Shown: positions 4,097 to 64,000 of the stretch, piece by piece | Numbering within the stretch: the first letter of the stretch is position 1 | How the letters are laid out: each line of letters begins with the position of its first letter | DNA from: a virus | Strand: one strand, 5' to 3' | DNA length: 64,000 nt | Virus record (IMG/VR): IMGVR_UViG_3300027917_000042 | Location: 7,712-71,711 of that record | The notes under the pieces: generated by a model | Databases searched by the model: none | Seen by the model: the letters and a program-made list of their open reading frames with translations, nothing else | What the model was told of the DNA's origin: nothing | Translations under genes and position numbers: made by a program

Positions 4097-4907
4097 CATG
4101 AATCAAAACCCGGACGACCTCACCATGTCCAACATCGACGACGTCAGCGAGGCCGAGCGGCGCTACAAGCTGATCCACAATCTGGCGATCGTCTGCGCCA
4201 AGTCTTCCATGGTCCCGAGGTACTACCGGGACAACGTCAATGACGCCTTTGTCGCCATCCAGATGGGAGCCGAGCTGGGCCTGCCGCCGTTTCAGGCGAT
4301 CCAGTTCATCGCGCCGATCTACTCGGAGAAGAACGACGAGTGCCGCCCAACCCTGTGGGGCGATGGTCTGCTCGCCGTGGTGCGGGGCAGCAAGGTCTGC
4401 GAGTACGTCAGGGAGTGGCTATCAGACGACGGGCAGGAAGCCTTCTGCGAAACCAAGCGCAAGGGCGAGCCGGAGCCTGTCGTGCGGTCCTACACCATGG
4501 ACCGGGCCCGGGCCAATGGATTGCTGGGTAAGCCGATCTGGCGCAAGGATCCGCAGCGCATGCTGCAGATGCGGGCCCGGGGGTTCTGTCTTCGCGACGT
4601 CTACGCCGACATCCTGAAGGGCGTGGGCATGGCCGAGGAAGTCATGGACTATGACGCCCCGGTGCCGCCGCAAGACGTGCCGGAACACAAGGATCCGGTC
4701 GAGGAGGCTGCGCCGATCGTGGAGGAAGACACCACGCTTGATGACGTTCTTGACGACATCAAGGACGCCAAGTCCATGGCCGATCTGTTGAAGGCCGGGG
4801 ATGCAGCGAAGCGCCTGTCGGAAGAGGACAGGGGGAAAGCGCGGGACGCCTATGCGGCGAAGCGCACCGAGCTGAAGGAGAACCAGAAAGGAAACGACGA
4901 TGCCTAG
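4089..4907 (+). CDS. recT: RecT/Red-beta-like single-strand annealing protein
   Basis: AIQMGAELGLPPFQAIQ.I, RPTLWGDGLLAVV, W..DPQRMLQMRARGFCLRDVYADIL.G; lies between the exonuclease and ssb. Confidence 0.85.
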   Translation: MSDMNQNPDDLTMSNIDDVSEAERRYKLIHNLAIVCAKSSMVPRYYRDNVNDAFVAIQMGAELGLPPFQAIQFIAPIYSEKNDECRPTLWGDGLLAVVRGSKVCEYVREWLSDDGQEAFCETKRKGEPEPVVRSYTMDRARANGLLGKPIWRKDPQRMLQMRARGFCLRDVYADILKGVGMAEEVMDYDAPVPPQDVPEHKDPVEEAAPIVEEDTTLDDVLDDIKDAKSMADLLKAGDAAKRLSEEDRGKARDAYAAKRTELKENQKGNDDA

Positions 4908-8161: not shown

Positions 8162-8602
8162 TCAGCCTCCTCGCTTGCGTAATTCGACATGTCCCCAATC
8201 CAGCAATTTCTGATCCTTTGTCGATCCATCCGTATCCCAGTCTCCGCCCCAGCGCAGGCTGACGCGCATTTCCGCAGCGGCGGCGGTCATCAGCCCGGCT
8301 ATGTGAGCGAAGATATGAGTATCGTTCCACGGGATCGTGCCGTTGACCCACGGGGCAAAATCGATCGCCAGCGAATTCGGCTCGCCGTTATCTCTGGTGT
8401 AGTTGTGTTTCGAGTCCGGCCATCGTTTCGTTGAGGCCCCGGATTCCTGAAGTGCGTTTTGTACTTCTTCGCCCCGCCAGCCGTGAACGATGGTGATGTC
8501 GTAAGGTGACAGCTCCAGCGCCCGCTCCGCGATGGCCCGCAACACCGGGTCACAAGTCTTCAGCTTGCTCATCGACTTGGATCCATAACTGTAACCGTTC
8601 AC
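8162..8602 (-). CDS. Endolysin, peptidase M15 (L-Ala-D-Glu peptidase-like)
   Basis: G.R....Q, SKH, AIDF, RWGGDW, D.GHVEL Zn-peptidase motifs. Confidence 0.93.
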   Translation of the reverse strand: MNGYSYGSKSMSKLKTCDPVLRAIAERALELSPYDITIVHGWRGEEVQNALQESGASTKRWPDSKHNYTRDNGEPNSLAIDFAPWVNGTIPWNDTHIFAHIAGLMTAAAAEMRVSLRWGGDWDTDGSTKDQKLLDWGHVELRKRGG

Positions 8603-11600: not shown

Positions 11601-14600
11601 TCAGATGCGCATGCTTGTACGGGTCCAGCTCGGGCGGCAATCCCTGCTGTCCGTAGTAAGAACGGATGGCGTGGCGGATCCCGGCGAACTGATCAAGCAA
11701 GGCTTGTTCAATGTGCGCCTTCTTGTTTTCGACGCCGAGAACTCGATACACGAAGCTCTGGAATCTCTCCAAAGGCCCGGGGCCTTCCCCGGCTACCTTC
11801 TGGTCCAGCTCCTTCAGGCCCTCTGCCTGCTCAGGCGGTGGCGCACGAGAGAACAATGGCAGGCCACGATCATTCAGCTCGGTTTCCAGCTTCGGCGGGA
11901 TGTCGATCATCCACGCGCCGAATGCTTTGGCGGCAGATTCCAGCTCATCCATCACGATGGCTTCGAGCTGTTTTCTGACATCACGAGAGTCCATGTGATA
12001 CAGACGCTTGTCTTCATCACTTACCCAGTCAGCCCGAGTGCCGTATGTCGTGATCGCTTTCGCTGGATCTGCCTGACTGTTCCACCCTGTCTTGTCGCCA
12101 GATGAAGTCACTCTCGTGACCTTTTTCTGCAACACGAAGATCGGCTCACGCTTGATGCGCTGCCGCTCTGCTGCAACTTCTTCCTTGGTCGCAATCAGGT
12201 AATAATCATTGACCTCAACTTCGCGGAACTCGCCTTGCTGACCGCTAAGCATCCGGTACTTGTCTCCCATGCTCTTCGGTCTTTTCCAGATCTTTTCCCG
12301 AAACACTGCGTCGTCAGCCCATTGACGGCTCGCGCCCAATGCTCTGGTGTTGATCCGGTATTTACCAAAGTCCACATCCTCGGGGACCGTCACTTCTTCG
12401 CCGTAACTGTTGGCGATGTATTCGTCGATCTCCTCCTCGGTCATGCGGGTTTCTTTCACCCGGTACTTCTGTCTGATTTCCTTCTCGACTGCTTCAATGG
12501 GCTTGTCGAAATAAGGGATCATCCCGGCTTCCATATTTGGCTTGCCTTTGATCGCGCCCCATTCGACTTTGGTGCCAAACTTTTTCAGCAGCTTGTTGGT
12601 AAAGACGTTCGGCTGAATCTTGTTGTAAACCGAGCGGCTGCCGGTCATGAATCTTGGCGAGTATCCGCCTGCCGCCATTTGCCTGTGGCCCGTCAAGTCC
12701 ACAGCATCGACGCCCACAAAGTTGACGTCACTGCCGCTTGCAGAACGAGCCTCTTCCTCGTCGGCAATGACCTGCTTGGCGACGGCGTTACCGAGGAACT
12801 GCGGCAGATCTTCCCGGGTTACGACATACCGGGTCTTGGCCTCGCCCTTGTCATAAGTTTGCAGCCGGTATAGACGGTCAACATTCTCGTTAGCCCACTC
12901 GTACAGGTTGCCCGAGTAACCAGCATCTCTTGCTTTCTGAAATTTCCTCGCGATGGACGTGTCTTTGAACTCTGATTCTGGCGGGATCTCATTGGAAGGT
13001 GTGTTCTGGAACAGCGCATTGGGCCCGGCAAACCCTTCGACGTTAGACGAGCTGACCACCTCGACATAATCGTAGAGCTGCCCGGCGTTCCAGCGGAACC
13101 CATGCACTTCGCCATTGGCGATGGCGACTTTCTTGATGCCTCGTCGATTCGCCTCGGCAAGCGCCCATTTCAATGCGAGCAGGTGATAAGTTTTTTCGAA
13201 AGGCGCTGGATCCATGCCCGTCTCAGCACGGTGAATCTTGTCCTCCCGCTCTGTAAACTCCAGAGCCATCTGGCCTATCGAAGAATCTCTGAAATCACTG
13301 AGATCATTAACCAGATCGCTGAGCTTGTAATCGCCACCTCGTTCTTTATACGACTGCGGCAGCCACTCCTGCGCCGGGACAAGAGTTGTCTCATCGAACA
13401 GCGGACCCTGACCATTGCGGCTGATCTTGTTTAGATACCCGGCCAGTGCCTCGGCATACGCCCCGGTCACCATTCGATTCTGCTGATCAAACTCCGGGTG
13501 AGTGACGTCGTAGGTCAGATCCAGATCTCGCAGCGAACGAAACAGCTGCTTGATCAATGTGCTTTTGATTTCAGCGACTTTGTCAGGCGCGAAGATTTCC
13601 TTGATATCGTCTGGCGTAATGACCGCATCGACCCAGCCAGCCGAGCCGGTGGCCCGCCAGTCGGGAGCCGGAGAACCGTCATACCATTGATAGGTGTGCG
13701 TGCCGTCATCGCTGACTTTTGCTTTCGGATAGGCGATGACAGTTTTTCCGTCATATTCCCTGAAATACGCAAACTTGCCTGTCAGTGCGTTTGCAATGAT
13801 CGCTCCGTACTGAGCCTCGTTCTCGTTTTTGTGAGGCGTGTTATTTTGGGCAAGACGTTCCAGCATGGCCCGATTGGCAAACGTGCCAAGAGCTTCAAGC
13901 ATCTGATCGGTGACCCTGCCAAGCGGTGCGGCGTGCTTCGAATCCAGCGTGCTGAGATTCTGGAACTGGTTGCGCGGATGTTTGCCAACGACCTGATCCA
14001 GCCATTTTTGGCGGAAGTGAAATGCAGGGCCGCCGGGATTCTCCATCAGCTGTTCGGCAGATGGATTATCGTTCCACTGTTTGTGAGTTTCTCCGTAGAC
14101 GATGAAGTCCATGAGGTCTACGAAGCTCATCGTCTCCAGAGCATCCTCGATCAGCGTCTCGCCTTTCGGGCGCACACTGCGGTTGTACTCGTTCAGATGC
14201 AGCTGGTGAATTTCTTCTTTCAGTCGCCGTGCTGTCTCCGGGCTCTTCACCCCGGCATCACGCAACTCCTGATGCCAGTCAGACTGGATCTCATCGATGA
14301 ACAGGATCTTCTCGCCATCAGGCGTATAGCGAATGTCATGCCGCAAGTGAACAATGATGTTGGGGATGTCATCCCAGTGAGCATCCGCAGTAAAGAGAGT
14401 CTCGTTGATGTCCCATTGAATCAACGTCTCTTCGTAATCTTCGCCGCCTTCGAGGTTGTAAGAAGGCCCGGTCCACTTGGTGGCTGGGAGCTGCTCCTGC
14501 TCATCTACCCACTCGCGAATGCTTTCGGTCACGTCCTCGGCAGCCATGGCGGTGCCCCAGTCCGTGCCATCAATGGTCAGGTCGTACTCATCTTCTGCGA

Positions 14601-17600
14601 CGTTGCCTTCGACATTGAACTGGTGGTTCTCGTAGATCCAGTACCATTTGGCGACCAGCCCACTGTTGTACTCTTTCTCCCAGTCTTCTTTATTGCTTGA
14701 CGTGAGAATATCTGAAGCGATGTACTCGCCGTCAATCTCGGTTTCGTTGTTGCTGGCATACTCGCGCAGCTCGTTCTCGTAGTCAGCATCATCTTCTTCA
14801 ACAGCATCCCGCTCTTGGCTGTACCAATGCTCCGCGATGCCTCGCCATCCAGCGTCCTCCAGCTTCTTGTCGAGCGCATCACTGGTGCCGAATGCTGATG
14901 TACCGAACTGCTCTTTCATTTCCTCCTCGGCCTTGGCGTCGAGGAAGCTGTTGTAATCGTCGTAGTCCGGGTGGCTTTCTTCGTCCGGGCTTGTTGAAGT
15001 AAAGCTATCCGCTTCCGCCCAGTCGAGATCCGACTTGGGATTTGTGACCGTGACCTTGACGCCCACTTCCCCAACCCAGTTCAGCATCACCTGAACCGGG
15101 ATCCTTTTAGCTGGACGTTCTCCGTATCTGACGATCATGGACCGGAGGTCGTTATATTCCTCCTCCATGTCCCGAATGCGTTTCACCATTCGCCTGACCG
15201 CCCGATAGGTGGCGTCGGTGTCGCTCAATCCTTGCGTGTAATCCTGCCAGCTGTACCGCTGGTCATAATTTTCGAGTCCGGCCCGGCTGATCTCAGCGGT
15301 GCCGTTGACAAGCGCATTGACGATCGTCTTCCGATGGTACATATCGGTGCGACTGGGCCAGAGCGTACTGGCAATCTTTTCTTCGAGCTGGCCGCGTTCG
15401 ACATCAAGCTCATCCTTGCGACTGTACGCCGCCTCGACATCCTTGTCGGGGTACAGATGGAACACCTCGTCGATCTTGTCATCGCGCCTGCCGCTCCAGT
15501 GCCGGTAAATGTCGTTGATGGTCGGGCTTTCAAGCAGCGTGTCGATGTCGGTCCAGTCAAGCTCATCTTGTTTGATCAAGCCTTTCTTGACTGCCGACGC
15601 GATCTCCTGCTGCCACTGCTCCTTGGTCCGGCCACCCGATTTGATCTCGGGCAAAGAGCCGAGCCAGCGATGCAGGGCGCTGTAGAAATGCGGCGAGTAC
15701 ATCGAGAAGCGGTGGTTGCGGTGCAGCTTGACCACCTGATGCTTGTAGCCGCCGGGCCGGTGAACGAAGTTCCAGCCTTCCGAAATGATGCCCCGGATCT
15801 GCCGCTTGGTGATGCCGTGGCCCTTGCCCATAGCGCGGTCCAGCCAGACCCGGAACATCTCCACCAGATCCTCGATGATCTGCTTCATCTTCTCGGGAAT
15901 GGATTTGCTGCGCAGGGCCTGCCCCGTGTAGTAGGCGATCACTTCTTCAGACGCGATGCGGCGCTGCGTCAAATCAGCGACGTTCAGCCCATTGCGTTTG
16001 GCGGCATCCTTGACCAGATCGGGAAACGTATTCCAGATCCGATCCATGACCCGTTCCCACTGCGCCGTGGACAAGACACCCTGTGTCCCGTAGTGGCCGA
16101 CCACCTCGTGCAACAGGGTCTCGATCGCATCCTCGTTGGTGTTGATGTTGGCCCCGATCAGGTAGACCGTGTCGAACATCCCGTGGATGTCGTACATGCC
16201 CTGCGTCCGGGTCAGCGCCTGCGACTGTGGATCCTGTGCCTGCTCCTCTTTCAGCTTCAGGTAGATGTCGTGCGGCAGATCTTCAACGGTCTCCACCACG
16301 ATCACCCGGGGCGCTGAGTTCATGCGCCGGTAAACCTGCCTGACAGCGTTCTGGACTGCCTGCTTGCCGAGCCCCTTACCTTCGTTGGTCTTCTTCTTGC
16401 TGTAGCGCGTCGCCTTTCTGGGACGGCGCTCGTAGAGGAACGGAGCCTCGGCCCTGAGCCGGAATCCGTTGCGCTTGTACCAGTTCACCAGCTGACCACG
16501 GGTCAGACCTTCCTCGCCGAACGGCACCGGGTTCAGCTGCAGGGTGACGCCGTGCTTGTCAGCCAGCTCGTTGATGCGACGCAGCGCCATGCCGCCGTCG
16601 CCCTTGTTGATCTCGAAGGCCCGGATGGACTCGATGCTGATGGTATTCTTGTCAGCCGGGCGCAGCTGGGCAGCCGCCTTCCATTCAACGATCCGCTCAG
16701 GCGCACCGAACGGATTGGCCTCGGTGCCTTCCATCCATTCCTTGATCATCGCCTCGACGTTTTTGCCATAGTCCGGCGTCGAGATCTTGACCTTGCGGCT
16801 GAACCGCTTGGGCTCTTTCAGGGTCAGGGTGCCGTCCTCGCTGACGCTGATGCGCATGTCGTCGAGCGACTGGCCGGTAGTCGGGGCCTGATGCTCGGCC
16901 CTGCGTTGGTCCATCAGCCTGCGCAGCTCGCTGTCTGGCACGCGCTGCCACGTATTGAGGTTGATACCTTCGGTCGGTTCGCGCCCGGCCTTCTCAGCGA
17001 GCGCCTGCTCGGTCTCCTGAAGGCTCTTCAGAACGTCCTTGATCGCCACCCTGCGAGCGGCATTCGGCATGAACCCATATTCCCCGGGGTCACCGAACTC
17101 GCCCGTCAGGCTGCGGTACATCGCGTCTGACAGGTTGGTGTTGTACTCTTGGGTGAACTGCTCTTCGCTGATCGTGATGCCGACCTGTTCCAGCAGCATG
17201 CGCTGAAGGCGGAACGCAAGGTCTTCCCACTCCAAGGCCCGCTGCGCTTCTTTCAGCGTCATTGGGCGCTGCTCGACCAGCTTCTGGTTCGGTGGCTTGC
17301 CACGCGGCAGCATGGCGATCCGGCCCAGCCTGCCATAACGGTAGCTGTCGCCGTACTTCTCCTGCATCAGCTGTTCAGTGATGCCGTGAGCAATCTCGTG
17401 GGAGACCCGCCATGCGCGGGTGTACTCGGTATCCTTGAAGGATCCGCGCTCGACCTCTGGGTCGTAGATCCAGACGGTGCCCTGCTCGTACCCTTGCTTC
17501 TTCAGCTTGGGCAAGCGGAACCGATCCGGGTCGTAACTGAAAACTTCCAGCTCGTACCCGTAATCGGCGAGTAGCTTCTCGGTGGTGCCCTGCGGATTGT

Positions 17601-20600
17601 CGATCGCAGGGGCGAGGTTGTAGATCTTCAGCCGGTTGGTGGTCGGTTCCTTTCGCAAGGAACCGAACCGACCGTAGATCTCTACTTGGGCTCGTCCTCC
17701 GTGGTCGAGTCGATCCACGGGTACTGGTGCGGCAGCCGACCTTGGTGAGGTCTTTGCGCGACCGGCCCAGCGTTTGGTGACCTGCTCGGCCCGCCCACGC
17801 CAATCGTCAAGCCGCGATTCAAGGCCCGGGCGTCGGGCTTGTATTTCATCACGTAGTCGAGATCCTTTTTCGTCAGCTTCCCAGTCATGTACGGTTCTCC
17901 TGTATCCAGATGACTCCACCGTCATTGGTGAAGAATCGTCTTTGATTATACCGAAAGGTGTTGAAATTTCCGAGATCCATGAGCGAACCCCGTCCAGCCA
18001 CTTCGCGTTGTTTGCGGCCTTCTTTCTCGATGTGGACGGAGCCTCTCCGGTTTCCGGGTCAACGCCGTCCAGATTGATCAGGGTAATTTCGTCCGGCTCT
18101 GTGACCGTGAACCCCTGTCCCGGGAAGTACTGTTCGAGCATCGCTGCCAGCAAGCCGATGTCCTCGCTGGTCAGGGCCTTATCGAATCTGACGGCGAATG
18201 CTTGATCGTAGCCCTCCTTGTTTGGGGATGGCGGCTCTTTCGCCTCGCTCTTCACCGGGCGGAACCAGATCACCGAATCCTGCCGGTAGATGTATTGCAG
18301 CGCCTTGGCGATGATGTCCGCCGTGTTCCTGTCGTAGCCCTCTGCCGCCTTTAACAGCGGCGCTTCCATCAAGGCTCCGGGCGCGGTGGTGCCAAGATAG
18401 CCGCCACGCATCTGCTCGGTGACGTACAGCGGCAGACCCAGTGCATCGAGCAACTCGTTGCGCCCGTCATCCGCGCCAAGGACGTTGAGCATTTCCTCGG
18501 TGAACTGGGTGCGCTCCGCGTCTGTCAGGCGAGCCAGCACCCGGCCCTCGTTGAAGCTCTCAGAAGGAATGGTCTCGAATGCCGCGTTGGCCGAGGATCC
18601 GCGAATCAGCTCAGCAAACGATCCCCGGCGACCGCCACGAGCCAGCACCCAGAGCGCCGCCTGAAACTGGCGCGGCCTGTAGTCGGTGTTGTACTGCTGG
18701 TTGTAATCCGCTGTCGCATCGACGATAACCTTGCGGGCGAATTCGTATTGGTTCGGCGTCAGTTTTTCTTCGTTCGTGAACCCGAACTCGCGAGCCATCC
18801 ACAGATCAATCGTCACCGCATCCGGGTAGCGGTCCTGCTCGAATGTCGCATCCCACAGGTTGCGGTAGAAGTTGAGCAGTTTTGGACCAACCCCCCGGGT
18901 GTTGATGGTCAGCTCGTCTGCTTCGAGGGCCTTGATCAAGTCCTCGTTGCCCATCAGGGCACCGGGGATCTTGGTCAGGTCACTGAGACGACCTTCTTTG
19001 TAAGCGTTGTAGATCCCGGTGATCCACTTCGTGACATTGGTTTCAACGGAGGTGTTCGGCGACATGAGCGCCAGCAGGCGCACCATCTTCTCCATGTCCT
19101 GCATGTCGCCCTTGACGAGCTTGCGGATCACGGCTCCGGCGTCTTCGTACCACGTCCACGCATCGGGCGGGATCAGCGCCCGGCCACCACCATCCTTGCC
19201 CTCGCCACGGCGGACCCGGTTGCGCAGCTTGGTGACGAAGCGACCCACCGCCCGGACGTCTTTGATGCCGGGCGGTGAGCCAACCGGCTTTTCGCCCCGG
19301 GTTGGATACCGCTCCTGATACCACTCGCCAGAAGGTGCCCGGCGGCGTCTCCTCACCCGGGAGAGGGAAGGGGTGGTGATGGAGGGGTGCCGCCGGGCAT
19401 TACTGACCCAGCGATCCACGCTGGGTTTCTGGTCAAGCGCAGGTTTTGGAATCGATATCGGCCCCTCAGGAAGGTCGATGGTATCGAGGTTCTGTGGATC
19501 GTCAGGATCCACCATCATCTCGCGCAAACGCTTCAGCCGACTTGTGGCAAGGTCGAACTTCTGTTCGCCAAGCGCCACCGCTACGTCCCGGGCGGTCTTC
19601 TGAGCCTCATTGTATGCGGGCAGCTTGCGGTGTTCGTCGGCGTATTCCTTCAACGCCCGATCCACCAGCTCGCGGTAATCCTCGAAGGTCGGAGCTTTGC
19701 CCGTTTTTTCCTCGAACTTCTTCCACCACTTCGGCGCGAACCGGGGTTCTTCCTGCCAGAGCCGGAAGTTGTTCTGCAGATTCTCCTCGAACTCCCGCTT
19801 GAATCCATACGGATTGGTGAGGTAGCTGATGCCTCGCTGGACCTTGGGCCACACAAACTCCAGCCCCTGATCCCGGCTCTCGTTGGCGGTGCGCTCAGAC
19901 ATGCGGTGCGTCAGGTCGCCGAGATGCTCGACCATCACCTGCATCACGCCACCCCCGGTCAGGGACTGGGCCCGCAGCATCGCCATCTCCGGCTTGCCGC
20001 GCTGCGCGTCAGCCAGCGCCTCGAAATCCTGCTTGGCGTCACGAGTAAACCCGTACTCGTCCCGACCATCGTCGCCAGACCCTCGCACGTAACGCAGGAT
20101 GCTGGGATCAAGCGCGATCGCCTCGCCGCTGTCACTAATGATCGCGTCGTAACCTTCCCGCCGGATGAACTCGAATTCCTCAGGGCGCAGCTGATCGAAT
20201 GCATCTCGCGGCAGCTGCAGGGGATTTTCCGGGTTGATAGTGACCGACAGCATGCCTTCCCGGCGTTTCTTCTCCAGCCGGGGCATGCCGCCCGCTTCCA
20301 TGTCGGCGTAGAAGACCTTGCCTTGGATCTGCTTGGCGAGGTCAGTTTCTGTCGGGGCCTGCCCGATCAGGCTCTCGACATCGCCCATGGAGCGAACTTT
20401 CTGGCGCAGCTCCGCGTCGGTCAGGCGAGTGATGTCCGGCGTGCGTGACTGTCGGATCCGCTGATCGAGCGCCTGCGCCCGGGTCTGGCCTTCGCCCACC
20501 AGCTGCCGCCTGCCCTCGGGTGTCAGGGTCATGCGACCCTCGGCGGCATTCAGCACCCGGCCAAGACCGGAACGCTGCAGGTTGAACATCTCCTCGTCGG

Positions 20601-22284
20601 TCAGGGGATCGCCATTGGCGACGCGCTGCAGGGTGTCGTTGCTGACATCCCTGACTTCCATGCCTGCTTGGGCAGCCTCTTCGGCGCTGACCTCGTCGGC
20701 CCGTTCAATGTAATCATCTCGTGGAGGTGGCTCAGAGCCACTCTCCTGCGCTCTGATGCGATCCGCAAGGTAACCGAGCCCACCACCAGCCGCACCCAGT
20801 CCAGCGCCTCCCAGAGCGGCTGGGAAGCCGCCCTCCGTGAGAATCTTGGCTGCCTCGACGTAGTCCCCGTTTTCCAGCGCGGTATTGAGCTTGTCGCGGG
20901 TCTCTTCGTCGTACACCAGACCCGCCACGTTCTGCATTGTTTCCTGCAGGAACTCGGTCGCGCCTTCGCCGGTCATCGCCAGCGCCAGTCGTCCGACAAG
21001 GCTCTTGCCCCCGGGCAGCTTGCCGAGGATGGCATCGAGGCCGGTCTTCTCCAACGCCGCGTTGACCGCTCCGGTCACCGAGGTCGCGATCACATACTGG
21101 TCATCCGAGATCTCGGAGCCTGTCATCTCTTCGAACTCGTTGATGTTCCCGGCCTGATCCATGGCCTCCATCCAGCCCATGAAAGACATTGGCGAGCCGG
21201 TCTGGCTGGCGAGGTAGGCCGCGTACAAGGTCGGAATGCCCTGACCGATGGCCGCGCCGAGAACATCCGGGTTCTTCGCCGCCTCCCACAAGAGCGCGAC
21301 ATCACCCTCTTCGAGGAACCGCTCCCATGCTTTCTGTCCCTCTTCGATACCCGCCGCTTTCTCTTTGAACATCGGCACGGTGTCGTTGAGGATCTGCATC
21401 GAGCGACCGATCTCGTCGGCCACGTCGCTGGTGCCCGCCGCGTGGAACTTGCCGAAGTCGTGGCCTTTGGCAATCTTGTCGAGGATCAGGGTCGGAGCCC
21501 CGAACGGGTTCAGCCAGTCCGGCACGCCCCGCTCCTGCAGCGCACGGTATGCGCCACGGGTATATCTGGAGGCCGACTCCGGCGTGCGGTAGATCATCTC
21601 GCTCATGCCGAGCGTGCCTTCGATGCCGCCCGCAGCCCCGGTCTCGGCAAATTGCCCGAGCCAACTGCCCTCGTCTTGCGGCTCGGCTGGCATGTATTTC
21701 TTCCATGGCCCCTGATCGCCTGACTGAGTCAGGTTCTGGGGCATGCTGGGAGAAATTTTGGTAGCGTCTATTTCCTCCGGCGTCCATGGACGGCCCGTGT
21801 CTGGATTGATTTCCTGCTGCTCTGGCTGCTGGGTCTGGTATTTCGACCATGGGCCCTCGTCCTGTGGGGCCTCCATGCGAGCCATCACTTTCTGGACATA
21901 GGGCTCGGTCTCCTGCCGCTTCGGCAGCGAAGCATAATCTCGCCCGGACGCCAGCCACCTGTCCGCGTTGCGTGGCCCGGCGTTGTACGCGATCAGCGCC
22001 GCTTCGGTATCGCCGCCGTACTTGCGGTACATGGCCGACAAGTATTCCTCGCCCTTCTGCTGCAGCGCCATCGGATCTTCCCATTTCTCCTCAGGCAATG
22101 GCTCAACGCCGTACCCCGGATCCCGCAAGGTCTCCGGCATAGTCTGCATCGTGCCAATCGCACCGACTGGAGAAACCGCGCTGGGATCAGCGCCGCTCTC
22201 GGCGTAGCGCACCGCTTCAAACAGGCGGGGGTCTGGATCCTGAGGCCGCTGGTACTTCGACCAAGGCCCGGCGGGCGTCGTCAT
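8599..22284 (-). CDS. Giant (4561 aa) polyvalent internal virion/ejection protein: N-terminal lytic transglycosylase, several enzyme-like domains, C-terminal LPD38-like region
   Basis: SLT motifs ES-G...GAIGTMQ..P.T...AYNAG...ET..YV; HEIAH and HEVVGH zincin-like motifs; GNAT-like segment (LVNWYKRNGF); C-terminal PFLNARMQG...YWHF...PKPFEVG. Follows the other ejection genes. Confidence 0.9.
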   Translation of the reverse strand: MTTPAGPWSKYQRPQDPDPRLFEAVRYAESGADPSAVSPVGAIGTMQTMPETLRDPGYGVEPLPEEKWEDPMALQQKGEEYLSAMYRKYGGDTEAALIAYNAGPRNADRWLASGRDYASLPKRQETEPYVQKVMARMEAPQDEGPWSKYQTQQPEQQEINPDTGRPWTPEEIDATKISPSMPQNLTQSGDQGPWKKYMPAEPQDEGSWLGQFAETGAAGGIEGTLGMSEMIYRTPESASRYTRGAYRALQERGVPDWLNPFGAPTLILDKIAKGHDFGKFHAAGTSDVADEIGRSMQILNDTVPMFKEKAAGIEEGQKAWERFLEEGDVALLWEAAKNPDVLGAAIGQGIPTLYAAYLASQTGSPMSFMGWMEAMDQAGNINEFEEMTGSEISDDQYVIATSVTGAVNAALEKTGLDAILGKLPGGKSLVGRLALAMTGEGATEFLQETMQNVAGLVYDEETRDKLNTALENGDYVEAAKILTEGGFPAALGGAGLGAAGGGLGYLADRIRAQESGSEPPPRDDYIERADEVSAEEAAQAGMEVRDVSNDTLQRVANGDPLTDEEMFNLQRSGLGRVLNAAEGRMTLTPEGRRQLVGEGQTRAQALDQRIRQSRTPDITRLTDAELRQKVRSMGDVESLIGQAPTETDLAKQIQGKVFYADMEAGGMPRLEKKRREGMLSVTINPENPLQLPRDAFDQLRPEEFEFIRREGYDAIISDSGEAIALDPSILRYVRGSGDDGRDEYGFTRDAKQDFEALADAQRGKPEMAMLRAQSLTGGGVMQVMVEHLGDLTHRMSERTANESRDQGLEFVWPKVQRGISYLTNPYGFKREFEENLQNNFRLWQEEPRFAPKWWKKFEEKTGKAPTFEDYRELVDRALKEYADEHRKLPAYNEAQKTARDVAVALGEQKFDLATSRLKRLREMMVDPDDPQNLDTIDLPEGPISIPKPALDQKPSVDRWVSNARRHPSITTPSLSRVRRRRRAPSGEWYQERYPTRGEKPVGSPPGIKDVRAVGRFVTKLRNRVRRGEGKDGGGRALIPPDAWTWYEDAGAVIRKLVKGDMQDMEKMVRLLALMSPNTSVETNVTKWITGIYNAYKEGRLSDLTKIPGALMGNEDLIKALEADELTINTRGVGPKLLNFYRNLWDATFEQDRYPDAVTIDLWMAREFGFTNEEKLTPNQYEFARKVIVDATADYNQQYNTDYRPRQFQAALWVLARGGRRGSFAELIRGSSANAAFETIPSESFNEGRVLARLTDAERTQFTEEMLNVLGADDGRNELLDALGLPLYVTEQMRGGYLGTTAPGALMEAPLLKAAEGYDRNTADIIAKALQYIYRQDSVIWFRPVKSEAKEPPSPNKEGYDQAFAVRFDKALTSEDIGLLAAMLEQYFPGQGFTVTEPDEITLINLDGVDPETGEAPSTSRKKAANNAKWLDGVRSWISEISTPFGIIKDDSSPMTVESSGYRRTVHDWEADEKGSRLRDEIQARRPGLESRLDDWRGRAEQVTKRWAGRAKTSPRSAAAPVPVDRLDHGGRAQVEIYGRFGSLRKEPTTNRLKIYNLAPAIDNPQGTTEKLLADYGYELEVFSYDPDRFRLPKLKKQGYEQGTVWIYDPEVERGSFKDTEYTRAWRVSHEIAHGITEQLMQEKYGDSYRYGRLGRIAMLPRGKPPNQKLVEQRPMTLKEAQRALEWEDLAFRLQRMLLEQVGITISEEQFTQEYNTNLSDAMYRSLTGEFGDPGEYGFMPNAARRVAIKDVLKSLQETEQALAEKAGREPTEGINLNTWQRVPDSELRRLMDQRRAEHQAPTTGQSLDDMRISVSEDGTLTLKEPKRFSRKVKISTPDYGKNVEAMIKEWMEGTEANPFGAPERIVEWKAAAQLRPADKNTISIESIRAFEINKGDGGMALRRINELADKHGVTLQLNPVPFGEEGLTRGQLVNWYKRNGFRLRAEAPFLYERRPRKATRYSKKKTNEGKGLGKQAVQNAVRQVYRRMNSAPRVIVVETVEDLPHDIYLKLKEEQAQDPQSQALTRTQGMYDIHGMFDTVYLIGANINTNEDAIETLLHEVVGHYGTQGVLSTAQWERVMDRIWNTFPDLVKDAAKRNGLNVADLTQRRIASEEVIAYYTGQALRSKSIPEKMKQIIEDLVEMFRVWLDRAMGKGHGITKRQIRGIISEGWNFVHRPGGYKHQVVKLHRNHRFSMYSPHFYSALHRWLGSLPEIKSGGRTKEQWQQEIASAVKKGLIKQDELDWTDIDTLLESPTINDIYRHWSGRRDDKIDEVFHLYPDKDVEAAYSRKDELDVERGQLEEKIASTLWPSRTDMYHRKTIVNALVNGTAEISRAGLENYDQRYSWQDYTQGLSDTDATYRAVRRMVKRIRDMEEEYNDLRSMIVRYGERPAKRIPVQVMLNWVGEVGVKVTVTNPKSDLDWAEADSFTSTSPDEESHPDYDDYNSFLDAKAEEEMKEQFGTSAFGTSDALDKKLEDAGWRGIAEHWYSQERDAVEEDDADYENELREYASNNETEIDGEYIASDILTSSNKEDWEKEYNSGLVAKWYWIYENHQFNVEGNVAEDEYDLTIDGTDWGTAMAAEDVTESIREWVDEQEQLPATKWTGPSYNLEGGEDYEETLIQWDINETLFTADAHWDDIPNIIVHLRHDIRYTPDGEKILFIDEIQSDWHQELRDAGVKSPETARRLKEEIHQLHLNEYNRSVRPKGETLIEDALETMSFVDLMDFIVYGETHKQWNDNPSAEQLMENPGGPAFHFRQKWLDQVVGKHPRNQFQNLSTLDSKHAAPLGRVTDQMLEALGTFANRAMLERLAQNNTPHKNENEAQYGAIIANALTGKFAYFREYDGKTVIAYPKAKVSDDGTHTYQWYDGSPAPDWRATGSAGWVDAVITPDDIKEIFAPDKVAEIKSTLIKQLFRSLRDLDLTYDVTHPEFDQQNRMVTGAYAEALAGYLNKISRNGQGPLFDETTLVPAQEWLPQSYKERGGDYKLSDLVNDLSDFRDSSIGQMALEFTEREDKIHRAETGMDPAPFEKTYHLLALKWALAEANRRGIKKVAIANGEVHGFRWNAGQLYDYVEVVSSSNVEGFAGPNALFQNTPSNEIPPESEFKDTSIARKFQKARDAGYSGNLYEWANENVDRLYRLQTYDKGEAKTRYVVTREDLPQFLGNAVAKQVIADEEEARSASGSDVNFVGVDAVDLTGHRQMAAGGYSPRFMTGSRSVYNKIQPNVFTNKLLKKFGTKVEWGAIKGKPNMEAGMIPYFDKPIEAVEKEIRQKYRVKETRMTEEEIDEYIANSYGEEVTVPEDVDFGKYRINTRALGASRQWADDAVFREKIWKRPKSMGDKYRMLSGQQGEFREVEVNDYYLIATKEEVAAERQRIKREPIFVLQKKVTRVTSSGDKTGWNSQADPAKAITTYGTRADWVSDEDKRLYHMDSRDVRKQLEAIVMDELESAAKAFGAWMIDIPPKLETELNDRGLPLFSRAPPPEQAEGLKELDQKVAGEGPGPLERFQSFVYRVLGVENKKAHIEQALLDQFAGIRHAIRSYYGQQGLPPELDPYKHAHLTTSPDSQIYVTLMEGTLEWRDGVSQVKEGSNGLLKILEPVGKRIDEWGKFMVARRAKRLYLEGIGKEGSEGMLFNIKQHLERTQSVPFGKLADVGAEQYMRAPPSELEWIREAVWQGILDGSLPQEIQDQIQRAGREQLLSPKAIAAGLWLGEQNPVFEQVADDYAQFMKEMLDWAQTAGVINPETRPLWENADYIPFYRLRDDQLGAGFSEQSGTVPPTLTGTSAVARQMLTQGLANQRSPIRKLRGGKSMLGNPMENILINLNMLMQTTMRNNAALMTIDALDGSGMVTKVKGFEFLEEKTIAEGDLKRRLSNVGIDVADMDQAALSALKKMWVVGTPKDPDVITILRNGKKEFYHVHDELLFRSLTAINQRHFQSFFGSLAMAPFRFTKRLLTTMITLDPAFMGANWMRDGPMAFVNSRYAKMLRPDRSLAGIGEALTLSKQMKTMMASGAAFYSGYINAGDPAAMSKSIKRAVRRSGVKGKILNTPFRLAHAYNDVAAAMENSNRIAYGYKPALDETGSVMEAVFESKDLMNFAKHGDLPIVAFFIQTVPFLNARMQGLYRYGQRQMGEGVKAAGVTLLKSMIITMATLALYWYNRDDERYKRLTQEDKDLYWHFWVGDMHYRQPKPFEVGALYGTVPERMWEWIESDADDATKLAMDRLGWIIGEMFNFDLRQIQLVTPLVEAARNYNSFFKGPIVPYYLQKVDPRYQYTETTSPTAREIAEAMPYDWPMLPDFIESPMMVEHIMRGYFGTLGSYIMMATDTAIRAQSDKYAKAPQLRADQLPIMKRFWRGYEPPVSYEKMEDGRNVIVLPKVEEGATFPRRTAWESMLYDFRKAAVQVEETMRDIEEGERLPDHLEKGYMARRARYFKGLTNEQVYDAIRDVKDSSKEIREIRKEIDEVMRNKVMTPEAKLMELEKKYREIEKAALEWYVGRPGSGFKEPGEDVRPEELPPLIMTEEMWEERQKLSDEEVIGWLQKKYPATAELYADVSKGGLR

Positions 22285-59989: not shown

Positions 59990-60235
59990 TCACATCACCT
60001 TCTGGCTGCCCGGCAGAATGAGCTTCGATTCAGGGGCCGTGACCTTCTTCTGATCGGACTTGGCCTCCATGTCCCTGAGTACGGCGACGAACCGCCACGC
60101 CGCGAACTGGGCGTCGGTCATGTCGTCAACACTGTCTGGTAACTCCTCCCCATCGGCCAGTCCCCAGTCAACTGACCACGTGATCCCCGCGCCGTCAGTG
60201 GCGAGATCTTCGATCATCAAGTAGACGCGGGCCAT
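59990..60235 (-). CDS. Hypothetical protein (81 aa)
   Basis: ATG 60235; C-terminal SKLILPG motif. Confidence 0.6.
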   Translation of the reverse strand: MARVYLMIEDLATDGAGITWSVDWGLADGEELPDSVDDMTDAQFAAWRFVAVLRDMEAKSDQKKVTAPESKLILPGSQKVM

Positions 60236-60833
60236 CTTCTTCCCCCATGACGGTGTACTCCCCCTCCAGCACGCCAGCGAGCTTCTCTTCCAGCTCGTGC
60301 AGAACATCCTCGGGCAGTGAAGAGAAACGATTCAGATTGATGTTGGTGGTGTGGGCGTCGCCGAAGATCTGGAAGTGCTTCCCGAGCTTCTCCAGCGCGT
60401 TCATCTTGTCGTGGAACTGGTAGGTGTAACTCTGGCGGATCTCGATGATGTCCTTGCCATCATCATCCTGCCCGGCCACGAACTCGTAATCGCTGATGTG
60501 GATCTGGGCGATGCAGGCTCGCTGCTCATCGGTCAGCTCATCAGGGGCCTTCCACATTCTGCACCCGGGGAGGCTCGGGTCTTCCTTCATGAACGAGGCC
60601 ACATCGAGGAACGCCACCTTGGCGATCTCATTGACCACCTCGGCACCGTTCGTGACGGCCCGCTCCTGTATCTGCTTGCTCAGCTCGGCGATGCGCTCTC
60701 GCACGTGCGGGCGATCGTAAATCTGGTACGCCCGATTGACCCAGCCAGATGAATACCCGGCCTGACGTGCTGCCTCCCGCAGGCTGCGGGTTTGCACATA
60801 GTGGTCGCAGAATGCCAGTTCACGTTTGGTCAT
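60195..60833 (-). CDS. terS: Terminase small subunit
   Basis: LT.RE..FC..Y......AAR.AGYS, V.NEIAKVAF.D, HDKMNALEKLGKH. Confidence 0.92.
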   Translation of the reverse strand: MTKRELAFCDHYVQTRSLREAARQAGYSSGWVNRAYQIYDRPHVRERIAELSKQIQERAVTNGAEVVNEIAKVAFLDVASFMKEDPSLPGCRMWKAPDELTDEQRACIAQIHISDYEFVAGQDDDGKDIIEIRQSYTYQFHDKMNALEKLGKHFQIFGDAHTTNINLNRFSSLPEDVLHELEEKLAGVLEGEYTVMGEEDGPRLLDDRRSRH

Positions 60834-60880: not shown

Positions 60881-60909
60881 TTGACTCTTGACTTTGTCAG
60901 GCGTATTTT
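60881..60909 (+). promoter_or_regulatory. Putative early sigma70 promoter
   Basis: TTGACT-17 bp-TATTTT (second TTGACT at 60888), upstream of the + strand early genes and divergent from terS. Confidence 0.6.
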
Positions 60910-60953: not shown

Positions 60954-61133
60954 ATGAGAAAGTTCGAAGTCATCTGGCGCTCTGCCAACGATCAGCGTGG
61001 TCTGGTCAAAGTGTCCCGGGTCAAGGGACTCAACAACTCCGACGCCGTCCGTACCGTCCGCCGCCTGCAGGGTGAGCGGATCTTCGTGCTGGGCGTCCAG
61101 TCCCCCGCCAACTCCGCCATCGGCTCATTCTGA
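60954..61133 (+). CDS. Small early hypothetical protein (59 aa)
   Basis: RBS GGAGAACC then ATG 60954. Confidence 0.7.
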   Translation: MRKFEVIWRSANDQRGLVKVSRVKGLNNSDAVRTVRRLQGERIFVLGVQSPANSAIGSF

Positions 61134-61143
61134 GGTAAGCAAC

Positions 61144-61971
61144 ATGTCTGAACTTTTCACCATTCACCCGTACAACGACAACCGTGCGTTCATCACGGTC
61201 AACCGCGACGTCACCGAGGACGACATCGAGATCGCCGCCGAGTGGAACACCGAGCTGCTCGATCGCACCGAGACAGGCGTCGTTGACTGGCTGGACGCGC
61301 ACGAGACGCATGGTCAGTTTGTGATCCTCATCCGGGCCCGCATCAAGGATGCCCTGTGGCAGCGTCTGCACAACGCCGTCCCCAACAGCACGAAGCTCCT
61401 GTCTGCTTCCCGTCGCATTGGTTACGGCGGCAACGAGGACCAGCCGGGCGTGTTCACTGGCGAGCGCAAGATCGAGCTGAGCGTGCGCGGTTGCCGCACC
61501 GACGAGAGCAAGCGCAACAAGAAGCGCCAGCTGATCAATGACCTGCTCTTCGCCGTCCGCGAAGAAGGCGGTCGGGATCGTCTGATCTGGGACATCTGCG
61601 AGCAGATCAACAAAGCCCTGCAAGACGTCGTCGCACGCGCCAACGCGGACGCCGAGGAGGTTCTGCGCGACAACTTCGTGTTCGTCAAGAACCTGAACGC
61701 CGAGTACGTCGAGAAGGCGCTGGACGAGGATCTTCGCTACAAGGCCCTGCACAAGGCAGCCCAGCAGGAAATCGCCGAGGTCGAGGCCCAGCTGGAGATC
61801 CTGAGGGGCCGTCGCGAAGCCGCCCTGCTGCAGAAGAAGGACGCCATCCGCCGCGCCGTCTGGAAGCGAGCCAGCGAAGCCTACGGCGAGGAGATCAACA
61901 AGCGCGTCAACGCGATCCTGCGCGACGAGTCGCCCGAGCTGGAATCGAGCGCGTTCGGTCGCCGATTCTGA
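61144..61971 (+). CDS. Early hypothetical protein with coiled-coil C-terminus
   Basis: RBS GAGGT; strong GC3 codon usage. Confidence 0.8.
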   Translation: MSELFTIHPYNDNRAFITVNRDVTEDDIEIAAEWNTELLDRTETGVVDWLDAHETHGQFVILIRARIKDALWQRLHNAVPNSTKLLSASRRIGYGGNEDQPGVFTGERKIELSVRGCRTDESKRNKKRQLINDLLFAVREEGGRDRLIWDICEQINKALQDVVARANADAEEVLRDNFVFVKNLNAEYVEKALDEDLRYKALHKAAQQEIAEVEAQLEILRGRREAALLQKKDAIRRAVWKRASEAYGEEINKRVNAILRDESPELESSAFGRRF

Positions 61972-61973
61972 CA

Positions 61974-62035
61974 GTCGAAACGCCCCGCCCGGGGCGTCTG
62001 CCGGAGATGGCCTACCGGCACTGATGAGACAGGCC
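61974..62035 (+). ncRNA. Type II hammerhead ribozyme with pseudoknot
   Basis: GTC-GAAA-[CGCCCC-GCCC-GGGGCG]-TC-[TGCCGG-AGATGGCCTA-CCGGCA]-CTGATGA-GAC-AGGCC. All invariant core nucleotides, three stems and a loop-I/3'-tail pseudoknot (GGCCT/AGGCC) are present; intergenic. Confidence 0.92.
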
Positions 62036-62053
62036 CACTGAAGGAGAACCAAG

Positions 62054-62941
62054 ATGACGATTGACTTCACCGATCTCGAAGAGATCATCACCGCCCCCGA
62101 GGGCGCGTCTGCGGAGCAATCCGGCGAGACGTTTCTGGAGGCTGCCGCCACCTACGCCAACGCCCCCTGCCGTCGCTGCGGCGGCTCCGGGCGCTACGGG
62201 TACTACGGCACCTGCTACAGCTGCATGGGCTCCGGCAAGAGCCGCCAGCGGGTCCGCACCGACAAGGCTGGCGTGGAAGCCCGGGCCAAGCGTCGCCAGC
62301 AGGCTGCCGCCAGAAAGGAACGTCAGGCTCAGGAGAAGCTCGATGCCGCCAAGGCATACCAAGAGGCCCACCCCGAGGTCACCGCTTGGCTGAAGGCCAA
62401 CGAACAGCGTTCCGAGTTCGCCGCCAGCCTGACCGCCTCGATCTACCAGTACGGCTCCCTCACCGAGCGCCAGCTGGCAGCAGTCGAGAAGATCGTGCGA
62501 CAGGACGCCGAGCGCAAGGCCAACGCGCCCAAGCCGGTGGCCGAGCTGGGCAACTGCCTGAAGTACCTGCAGACGGCACGCCAGAACGGCTTGAAGTATC
62601 CCAAGCTGCGGCTGGTGGATGGCTCAGGCGCACGCATCGTCCTGCAGCTGGCAGGCGACCGCTCCCGCAACCCGGGCTCGGTCAACATCACTGACGGTCG
62701 GCGCTACCCGGACAATCGCTGGTTTGGTCGCATCGGCGTCGATGGCAAATTCACCCCGGCGCGGAACTGCCCGCCCGAGGTGGTCGAGACGCTGGTCGAG
62801 ATCGACAAGGATCCCGCGACCGCCGTCAAGGTGCAGGGCCAGCGCACCGGCCAGTGCTGCTGCTGTGGCCGCGAGCTGACCAACGAAGTGTCGATCGAGC
62901 TGGGCATCGGCCCGATCTGCCGCGAACGATTTGGACTGTAA
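62054..62941 (+). CDS. Protein with DnaJ-like Zn finger (N-terminal) and DUF6011-like Zn finger (C-terminal)
   Basis: CRRCGGSG..CYSCMGSG; GSLTERQ; C..CGRELT...SIELGIGPIC. Confidence 0.85.
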   Translation: MTIDFTDLEEIITAPEGASAEQSGETFLEAAATYANAPCRRCGGSGRYGYYGTCYSCMGSGKSRQRVRTDKAGVEARAKRRQQAAARKERQAQEKLDAAKAYQEAHPEVTAWLKANEQRSEFAASLTASIYQYGSLTERQLAAVEKIVRQDAERKANAPKPVAELGNCLKYLQTARQNGLKYPKLRLVDGSGARIVLQLAGDRSRNPGSVNITDGRRYPDNRWFGRIGVDGKFTPARNCPPEVVETLVEIDKDPATAVKVQGQRTGQCCCCGRELTNEVSIELGIGPICRERFGL

Positions 62942-62951
62942 GGAGAACCAC

Positions 62952-63713
62952 GTGAACATCGATCTTTCCAACCACATCTCCGCCGCCGTGTGCGAGCGTG
63001 CCGAGACCTTCGCCAAGGTGGACCTGCTGGCAAGCGGGCCCAACTTCCTCATGGACCTGATCCAGCAGACCGGCAACAACGACCCGGACGCCAGCTACGC
63101 GGCGTTCGAGTTCTGCCGGGAGGCCGAGCGCAAGCTGCGGGAAGCGGCCCGCGAGGCATGCAACAGCATCCGGGCACGGGACATCGACGAGTTCGACACC
63201 GCCGTGTTCCGGGCCCGTCACCTGATCGAGAAAGCCGACCTGTTCGCCCAGACCCGCGACGTCTTCAAGGACACCACCGCGAAGGCTCAGGACGACGCCA
63301 TCAGCGCCGAGTTTCGCAAGCTGCTCGACAACGAGCTGCGCGGCGACACGTACTTCTACTTCACCCTGTGCCGTCAGCACGAGACCACCCGGCGCAACTG
63401 GGCCACCGGCAAGGACGAGAAGTACACCGTCCGCTCGCACCTGACCCGGGGCAAAGATTACCGGGGCCGGTCCTGTCTGGAGTTTGATCGCGGTCGGCGT
63501 CAGGAAGTGACGTGGGCCCAGATCGGCACCGCACTGAAGAACGCACACAAGCTCGTTGACGAGGACTACGGCGTCTCCGAGGTCGAGGTCATCATCGACT
63601 CCGGCACGCTCTGGTCCATCGATTCCAAGCTGCCCGAGCAGGAGCGCCACGAACGCAACGTGCAGAGCCTGATGGGGCGTCGCGTACTGGGCACGATCAG
63701 GAGACTGAAATGA
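62952..63713 (+). CDS. Early hypothetical protein
   Basis: GTG 62952 behind AAGGAG; strong GC3. Confidence 0.75.
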   Translation: MNIDLSNHISAAVCERAETFAKVDLLASGPNFLMDLIQQTGNNDPDASYAAFEFCREAERKLREAAREACNSIRARDIDEFDTAVFRARHLIEKADLFAQTRDVFKDTTAKAQDDAISAEFRKLLDNELRGDTYFYFTLCRQHETTRRNWATGKDEKYTVRSHLTRGKDYRGRSCLEFDRGRRQEVTWAQIGTALKNAHKLVDEDYGVSEVEVIIDSGTLWSIDSKLPEQERHERNVQSLMGRRVLGTIRRLK

Positions 63714-63919
63714 CCACTACTGACAATGACATTCTCGAAGAGGCGCTGGCGCTTGTTCGCGGCAACGCTTTCTACTTCCAGCAGCCCGACGTCGTGGCTG
63801 GCAAGAGCATCGTGCGCGACCGCTACGGCTGCCGCTACAACGGACAGCTATTCACTGACGACTGCACCTACTCGCTGGGCGAGCAGATCGCCCGCGCCAT
63901 AAAGGAGAACCAATCATGA
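63710..63919 (+). CDS. Small hypothetical protein
   Basis: ATGA coupling, RBS AGGAG. Confidence 0.7.
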   Translation: MTTTDNDILEEALALVRGNAFYFQQPDVVAGKSIVRDRYGCRYNGQLFTDDCTYSLGEQIARAIKENQS

Positions 63920-64000
63920 CTGTGAAAGAACTGCTCGAACGGTTGCAGTGCTGCAACCCCGATTCAGAGGTGATCATCTCGATCCGCCAGAACGAACAGG
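63916..64000 (+). CDS. Hypothetical protein (partial, runs off right end)
   Basis: MTVKELLERLQCCNPDSEVII...; RBS AAAGGAG. Confidence 0.65.
   Translation, partial: MTVKELLERLQCCNPDSEVIISIRQNEQ

Follow-up and report, generated by a model that had tools for sequence, protein, structure and literature searches.

A predicted self-cleaving hammerhead ribozyme between co-directional genes of an uncultured marine-sediment phage

A complete type II hammerhead ribozyme, here called HH1, lies between two plus-strand genes of an uncultured marine-sediment phage of about 72 kb, and we consider it probable (roughly 0.78) that it serves as a self-cleaving spacer between these co-directional genes, splitting a polycistronic plus-strand RNA. 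By every in silico criterion of the family, HH1 is a genuine type II hammerhead whose cleavage is predicted; what we say of transcription and cleavage, of how the products fare and of any benefit to the phage is inference, both for HH1 and for a second copy, HH2.

The HH1 locus

The DNA analyzed (the window, 64 kb) comprises positions 7712 to 71711 of a 71,711-bp IMG/VR virus record, genome G000. Coordinates prefixed with C1 follow the numbering of the virus record, and all others follow the separate numbering of the window unless another sequence is named. The features at and around HH1 are as follows.

60881-60909, plus strand: candidate sigma-70-like promoter, TTGACT-17-TATTTT, a consensus match only, in the divergent gap that separates the minus-strand small terminase gene from the plus-strand block
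61141-61971, plus strand: upstream gene, 276 aa from its ATG, an open reading frame with no Pfam or PHROG family in profile searches
61969-61971, plus strand: stop codon TGA of the upstream gene, with a 2-nt gap to stem II (read from the sequence)
61973-62038, plus strand: HH1, complete type II hammerhead ribozyme, given as the extent of the Rfam match (RF02276)
61974-61976, plus strand: stem II 5' strand GUC, partner of GAC at 62028-62030; C61976-G62028 is the 11.1-10.1 pair
61977-61980, plus strand: core GAAA; A61980-U61997 is the 15.1-16.1 pair
61981-61996, plus strand: stem III hairpin, six G-C/C-G pairs with loop GCCC; CGCCCC (61981-61986) pairs with GGGGCG (61991-61996) by fold and parsing
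61996-61998, plus strand: GUC cleavage triplet, predicted cut after C61998, placed by the model alignment
61999-62020, plus strand: stem I hairpin, six pairs with a 10-nt loop; UGCCGG (61999-62004) pairs with CCGGCA (62015-62020) by fold and parsing
62009-62013, plus strand: loop I GGCCU, 5' partner of the pseudoknot, complementary to the tail AGGCC
62021-62027, plus strand: core CUGAUGA, from the sequence and the covariance model
62028-62030, plus strand: stem II 3' strand GAC (read from the sequence)
62031-62035, plus strand: tail AGGCC, 3' partner of the pseudoknot (read from the sequence; the pairing covaries class-wide)
62041-62046, plus strand: Shine-Dalgarno sequence AAGGAG of the downstream gene (read from the sequence)
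62054, plus strand: ATG of the downstream gene (read from the sequence)
62054-62941, plus strand: downstream gene, 295 aa, with an N-terminal CxxC...CxxC and a C-terminal DUF6011 (PF19474, 52.3 bits; phrog_4046, 213 bits, function unknown)

When the whole 64-kb window was scanned against all 4,227 Rfam families at the gathering level, HH1 was the only match, scoring 52.5 bits against RF02276 (Hammerhead_II; cut-off, 37 bits; E = 6.2e-8) over model positions 1 to 66 of 66. An earlier note, made from the letters of the sequence, had described a complete pseudoknotted type II hammerhead at this site and had proposed such a scan with the Rfam hammerhead models, which recovered the ribozyme above the cut-off over the full model. 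All of the motif coordinates in that note are correct to the base when read back from the sequence, and its identification of the element is borne out by the covariance model, by compensatory changes in the relative G001, and by covariation of the pseudoknot across the class.

The strands of HH1 follow the order GUC, GAAA, stem III hairpin, GUC, stem I hairpin, CUGAUGA, GAC, with stems I and III closed by loops and stem II open, which is the type II arrangement. Both of the pairs that close the junction, A15.1-U16.1 and G10.1-C11.1, are present in the sequence, and loop I and the tail (GGCCU/AGGCC) form a pseudoknot of five pairs. Stems III and I were recovered in the minimum-free-energy fold of positions 61965 to 62045; the fold z-score of this 81-nt region, from a fold that cannot represent the pseudoknot, is an unremarkable -1.63. 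The fold also predicted an outer helix sequestering the ribosome-binding site, which was dropped because position 61967 differs in G001. HH1 is on the same strand as both flanking genes, and its sequence is unchanged in two independent DNA samples.

The G+C richness of the stem III hairpin and a z-score of merely -1.63 could be taken to favor a chance match, or an intrinsic terminator hairpin in place of a ribozyme, but neither hairpin is followed by a run of T, and no terminator-like site was called there. An E value of 6e-8 with every core nucleotide in place, together with the retention of HH1 in G001 with covariation, also argues against such a reading, which the Rfam score, the terminator search and the covariation effectively refute and to which we give next to no credence.

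The plus-strand block containing HH1 begins past a divergent gap, continues across the ends of the record, and includes RecE-like and RecT-like genes. On the other side of the gap is a minus-strand block with genes for the small terminase subunit (60195-60833), the large terminase subunit and the portal, and a 4,561-aa open reading frame. We call the plus-strand genes early, a label inferred from gene order and layout. Between the promoter candidate and HH2, no terminator-like site was found on the plus strand except for a hairpin inside the promoter-like site itself (6 pairs, 3-nt loop, followed by a T-rich run; 60887-60901, plus strand). The single 4,561-aa frame (8599-22284, minus strand) matches lytic transglycosylase and tail-lysin families at its N terminus and PHROGs of unknown function at residues ~3900 to 4350, with a faint match (19 bits) to virion RNA polymerase; its product is probably a giant ejected or internal virion protein. 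An antisense open frame of 373 aa (61030-62151, minus strand) spans the upstream gene, HH1 and the start of the DUF6011 gene, and is most likely spurious because the DNA is ~60% G+C.

The ends of the record overlap imperfectly, with window positions 63549 to 63714 matching record positions 1 to 166 at 96.4% and window positions 63916 to 64000 matching record positions 162 to 246 at 98.8%, and a 69-aa open reading frame (window 63710-63919) is present in the end copy only. The assembled genome is thus in effect circular or permuted, and its two ends suggest that a permuted or circular assembly combined two variants from the population, one small gene apart. The expression data, one metatranscriptome alongside three DNA runs, all as contigs, include a single RNA-library contig of 265 nt over positions 62051 to 62315 and none over the ribozyme; such contigs lack RNA ends, and DNA carry-over is possible.

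A second hammerhead, and distribution within the clade

HH2 lies on the same strand as HH1, ~2.6 kb downstream (C1:839-908, outside the window). A search of the whole record scored it at 33.9 bits against RF02276, under the cut-off of 37, and we accept it as a hammerhead despite this score on the strength of its core, pseudoknot and conservation. It consists of GUC, GAAA, a 7-pair stem III, a GUC triplet, a 9-pair stem I with one bulge, CUGAUGA and GAC; its core is the same as that of HH1, and its pseudoknot, UGGCU/AGCCA, has 5 pairs. HH2 starts 1 nt past a stop codon and ends just ahead of an AGGAG and ATG. Its predicted cut, after C1:865, is 2,621 nt from that of HH1 when the overlap of the record ends is considered, and the two plus-strand hammerheads bracket a block of five open reading frames, and the same pair occurs in G001. 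A search for other ribozyme classes returned none in the window at the gathering level and none in the early regions of G000 and G001 at E values up to 1. One further Rfam candidate, Mu-gpT-DE (RF03012) at C1:888-924, which overlaps the 3' half of HH2, the ribosome-binding site and the start codon, was rejected at 20.9 bits against a cut-off of 49; because its CCUG/CAGG pairing is absent from G001, the match is probably due to chance.

G001, the sole close relative in the viral collection (72,059 bp, with direct terminal repeats), is 92% identical to G000 in the large terminase and 79 to 80% identical in the DUF6011 protein. It carries both HH1 and HH2 at orthologous places, where they score 49.3 and 33.1 bits. 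In a global alignment, all 50 columns of HH1 that lie outside stem III are identical, whereas the flanking coding sequences are 76.2% and 81.5% identical at the DNA level; HH2 is identical at 63 of 71 columns (88.7%), as against 58.5% and 50.7% for the coding sequences at its sides. The differences that do occur follow the structure. The earlier note had proposed looking for covariation in related phages, and in this single relative stem III of HH1 has two double changes, from G-C to C-G and from C-G to G-C. In HH2, the middle pair of stem II changes from U-A to C-G, and the bulge of stem I shifts between the two genomes with all nine pairs retained. These pairs were tabulated by parsing each of the four ribozymes (a MAFFT alignment misaligned stem I between the paralogs and was unused), and the compensatory counts are small since they rest on one relative. 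The ribozymes are better conserved than the adjoining coding DNA and change by compensatory substitutions, which indicates that the folds of HH1 and HH2 are under purifying selection.

The HH2 ortholog of G001 (L004, 5840-5910) has the core CCGAUGA and an extra U before stem II, with all helices and the pseudoknot kept. Changes to U4 of the hammerhead core are generally strongly deleterious, and this ortholog may cleave slowly or not at all, or its core may be a natural variant that is tolerated. The CCGAUGA variant does not appear in the core-variant section of the description of the class by Perreault et al. (PMC3088659). A third hammerhead candidate in G001, at 18.8 bits on the opposite strand, was taken as noise.

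Within the wider clade, hammerheads are carried only by G000 and G001. A search with the large terminase returned 57 loci: G001, 43 at 59 to 65% identity, and 13 at 31 to 34%. RF02276 was scanned against 49 records, namely the 43 and a further six found through the RecE-like protein, and gave no match above the cut-off in any of the 49 or in any of the six near-complete genomes (at least 96% complete); the sole match at E values up to 0.01 in the 49 records (G011, 16.8 bits) was treated as noise. By this distribution, the hammerheads are dispensable for the clade.

The genes around the two ribozymes differ in their distribution. The first six open reading frames of the plus-strand block of G000, both neighbors of HH1 included, have no homolog in the six near-complete genomes. 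The 276-aa upstream protein has a homolog in G001 only (68% amino acid identity) and in none of these six, and the DUF6011 protein is present in G001 only among the seven related genomes searched; closer relatives were found neither for the DUF6011 protein, in a metagenome scan with its alignment, nor for the upstream protein, in viral contigs. The gene directly after HH2 (p194, 194 aa) has homologs in three of the six near-complete genomes and a short match in a fourth. HH2 thus sits exactly where the lineage-specific gene block meets a clade-conserved gene, and HH1 lies inside the lineage-specific block. The homologs of p194 begin 12 to 15 nt past the upstream open reading frame, overlap it, or follow a longer spacer, and no ribozyme of any Rfam class was found ahead of them in the early leaders of the six relatives at E values up to 1.

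The corresponding region of some relatives contains tRNA genes. Three hammerhead-free genomes (G022, G016 and G003) have one or two each, for five Rfam tRNA hits (L224, 234-314, plus strand; L225, 1931-2014 and 2019-2101, minus strand; L226, 1220-1302 and 1376-1457, minus strand), situated where the early block begins, with the small terminase gene on one side and the p194 homolog on the other. The two hits that were aligned combine the anticodon GUA with a long variable arm. Rfam scans found no tRNA in the corresponding stretch of G000 or G001.

Phage hammerheads as a class

To place HH1 and HH2 among other phage hammerheads, viral contigs were surveyed for type II hammerheads whose stem II is GUC/GAC, a pattern that covers a single stem II type and yields a biased sample. 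There were at least 143 pattern matches, at least 136 of them distinct, in at least 119 viral contigs. Layout was counted for distinct hammerheads far enough from the edge of the locus, with 715 random same-strand positions as the control. Among the matches listed, an upstream open reading frame of at least 50 codons ends -1 to +5 nt before the GUC in 104 of 133 cases (20 of 715 for random positions), and the most frequent spacing between stop codon and GUC is -1, the closest that the sequence allows. A Shine-Dalgarno sequence and start codon follow 8 to 40 nt after the GAC in 98 of 127 of the matches listed versus 48 of 715 random positions, and both features, with the stop window widened to -1 to +12 nt, occur together in 81 of 124 of the matches listed versus 9 of 715. 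The layout of stop codon, ribozyme, ribosome-binding site and start codon is the norm for the class, and the ribozyme usually fills the entire spacer from the stop codon to the Shine-Dalgarno sequence. That the ribozymes lie so close to the stop codon may be due to compaction of the genome and not to function.

The pseudoknot is likewise a property of the class. Among the matches listed, 84 of 104 hammerheads whose loop is 5 nt or longer have at least four Watson-Crick pairs between loop I and the tail, against a mean of 22.2 and a maximum of 32 when tails were permuted, and there are at least 48 distinct loop I/tail pairings. Multiple copies (two to seven) occur in 15 of the 119 loci among the matches listed, always on one strand and 261 to 1,810 nt apart. 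By sequence comparison HH1 is a near-consensus member of its subclass, up to 85% identical to hammerheads of unrelated viral contigs; in another metagenome, contigs match the ribozyme only and then diverge, once into a Shine-Dalgarno sequence and ATG. A link between hammerheads and DUF6011 genes was rejected, as the seven early proteins of the window match none of the 119 listed hammerhead loci (tblastn, E = 1e-4).

Cultured phages contain the same class of element: all five of those chosen from BLAST hits have RF02276 matches above the cut-off. Streptomyces phage Triumph (OQ190479.1, 41830-49732, minus strand) has ten RF02276 matches, eight of them above the cut-off, within ~8 kb of small genes. 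Chromohalobacter phage YPCBV-1 and Rhodovulum phage RS1 have one strong copy each (78.3 and 65.4 bits, respectively), adjoining genes annotated as Gam, GemA or DUF3164.

In 2011, Perreault et al. (PMC3088659) described type II hammerheads in which loop I and the tail form a pseudoknot, and HH1 resembles that class in its core, strand order, short stem II, and pseudoknot between loop I and the sequence after stem II; there is no structural difference, and HH1 comes from an uncultured phage genome. The same study reported prophages in which multiple hammerheads flank a gene or a short run of genes, put forward the processing of long phage transcripts into shorter mRNAs, and found that clustered hammerheads cut native polycistronic RNAs of ~2 kb in vitro, with one triple arrangement doing so in Escherichia coli as well (PMC3088659). 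As in the prophage clusters of the Agrobacterium tumefaciens ardA locus, Clostridium scindens and Azorhizobium caulinodans, where the bracketed genes vary in identity and lie inside phage transcription units for which transcript processing was proposed (PMC3088659), hammerheads on the same strand bracket genes. Unlike those clusters, HH1 and HH2 are 2.6 kb apart with five genes between them, in a lytic-type 72-kb phage genome, and their spacing exceeds the 261 to 1,810 nt between neighboring copies among the matches listed. The neighbor of HH1 is a gene for a DUF6011 protein, as opposed to ardA in the A. tumefaciens cluster.

In Desulfovibrio vulgaris, in vivo cleavage was shown for three type II hammerheads located by phage-like genes (Olzog et al. 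2021, PMC8782182). They share with HH1 the type II form and hypothetical and phage-like gene neighbors, and two of the three are close together on one strand; they are chromosomal, with 5'-OH and 2',3'-cyclic phosphate ends determined experimentally (PMC8782182), whereas those of HH1 are predicted. In the haloviruses HF1 and HF2, a hammerhead lies upstream of an early helicase gene and a mapped transcript 5' end falls within 3 nt of the cleavage site; these are archaeal viruses with a salt-adapted core variant, and that hammerhead starts off a transcript and does not separate two genes (PMC3088659). Like the type I hammerheads of eukaryotic RNA viruses and RiboJ, HH1 spans a whole short spacer and would cut just 5' of the next open reading frame, giving it a 5' end that is fixed and independent of what lies upstream. 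The eukaryotic RNA virus elements are type I with a proposed role in translation initiation, and RiboJ is engineered, whereas HH1 precedes a normal Shine-Dalgarno sequence. A 2019 review calls the roles of bacterial and phage hammerheads still elusive (PMC6765202), and a 2026 paper on eukaryotic RNA viruses treats DNA-phage hammerheads as already described (PMC13725137). Our search, which left most subscription journals outside, found no later literature that settles phage hammerhead function.

Transcript processing, its alternatives, and significance

In the mechanism that we favor, a promoter near 60881 to 60909 would most likely drive transcription of the plus-strand block into a single long RNA. 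Once the polymerase has passed ~62035, stems III and I would form, and the pseudoknot between loop I and the tail would dock stem I against the 3-bp stem II. The RNA would then cut itself after C61998, either co- or posttranscriptionally, and HH2 would cut after C1:865. Hammerheads cleave to leave a 2',3'-cyclic phosphate and a 5'-OH, which would be found here at the end of the upstream product and on U61999 of the downstream product, respectively. The cleaved halves would be joined by the 3-bp stem II alone and should therefore separate, making release fast. The upstream message would retain its stop codon and a further 27 nt, closing with the G+C-rich hairpin of stem III and an overhang of 1 nt, and the downstream message would start at the stem I hairpin, 42 nt ahead of the Shine-Dalgarno sequence. 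The predicted folds place the stem III hairpin at the end of each of the two upstream products and stem I at the start of the downstream product of HH1.

HH2 would cleave in the same manner ahead of the clade-conserved gene, and the two ribozymes together would divide the early transcript into at least three pieces. With a defined, hairpin-capped end on each piece, decay and translation could proceed independently of the neighbors; adjacent cistrons would be uncoupled in both respects, and the downstream gene would be given a fixed 5' end. Such an end, set regardless of the upstream sequence, would suit genes that move between phages. Whether a 5'-OH stabilizes or destabilizes the message depends on the host; the 5'-OH left behind by the glmS ribozyme of Bacillus reportedly marks the message for decay. 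The earlier note had proposed protein-free mRNA cleavage leaving a 5'-OH hairpin near the ribosome-binding site, which follows from hammerhead chemistry and is the standard hypothesis already published (PMC3088659).

Processing might instead be regulated rather than constitutive. Ribosomes reach ~12 to 15 nt beyond the A site, so with a stop codon only 2 nt from stem II, a terminating ribosome would extend over stem II and GAAA into the beginning of stem III, and cleavage would depend on translation of the upstream gene. The class-wide placement of the stop codon -1 to +5 nt from the GUC (104 of 133 among the matches listed, with the mode at -1) agrees with a switch of this kind, but the same spacing is expected from plain compaction of phage intergenic spacers. 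Moreover, tertiary-stabilized hammerheads need only seconds to minutes to cut and can adopt their fold ahead of a ribosome or in the interval between two, and we consider translational gating unlikely. It is also improbable, in our estimate, that the hammerheads are decaying elements that arrived with horizontally acquired early genes, confer no benefit and persist because the acquisition is recent. Their sporadic distribution (G000 and G001 only within the clade), the lineage-specific genes around HH1, the HH1-like sequences in unrelated flanks (in another metagenome and, at up to 85% identity, in unrelated viral contigs) and the variant core of the G001 HH2 ortholog would all accord with such hitchhiking. 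HH1 and HH2 nevertheless surpass the adjoining coding DNA in conservation and change by compensatory substitutions, which speaks for maintenance of the fold, and HH1 is identical in two independent DNA samples.

The most far-reaching alternative would make the released RNA circular. HH1 and HH2 are two complete hammerheads on the same strand, with cleavage sites 2,621 nt apart, and could release a 2.6-kb, five-gene RNA. RtcB-type ligases join 5'-OH and 2',3'-cyclic phosphate ends, to which the products of HH1 and HH2 are suited, and ligation by such an enzyme of the host, or by a hybrid hammerhead composed of the 5' half of HH2 and the 3' half of HH1, would yield a circular, exonuclease-resistant and translatable mRNA, a natural circular messenger in a bacterial virus. 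The hybrid could form in G000, given that both ribozymes have the same GUC/GAC stem II; in G001, however, the hybrid stem II would set GCC opposite GAC, with a C-A mismatch, and self-ligation is therefore not conserved. The shared GUC/GAC is, besides, merely the common stem II of the subclass, present in at least 119 contigs. Perreault et al. raised the possibility of circular products, but sought circular or spliced products in their own systems and detected none (PMC3088659). The sequencing contigs of the present locus contain no such joint, but as they cover HH1 only they say nothing either way. We regard circularization as very unlikely.

For the favored reading, cleavage into linear messages, the hammerhead class, its pseudoknot, its genomic setting and the processing hypothesis are already published. 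What is new here is HH2 together with the evidence that it is conserved, the finding that both copies are confined to one lineage, the location of HH2 at the boundary between accessory and conserved genes, and the quantified filling of the spacer from stop codon to Shine-Dalgarno sequence. The clade offers a natural comparison, in that two close phages have two ribozymes and six near-complete relatives have none, and since cultured phages such as Triumph carry the same elements, the purpose of phage hammerheads is accessible to experiment in a tractable system. The boundary pattern of HH2 fits a view of these ribozymes as portable boundaries that allow acquired genes to be expressed independently of their surroundings.
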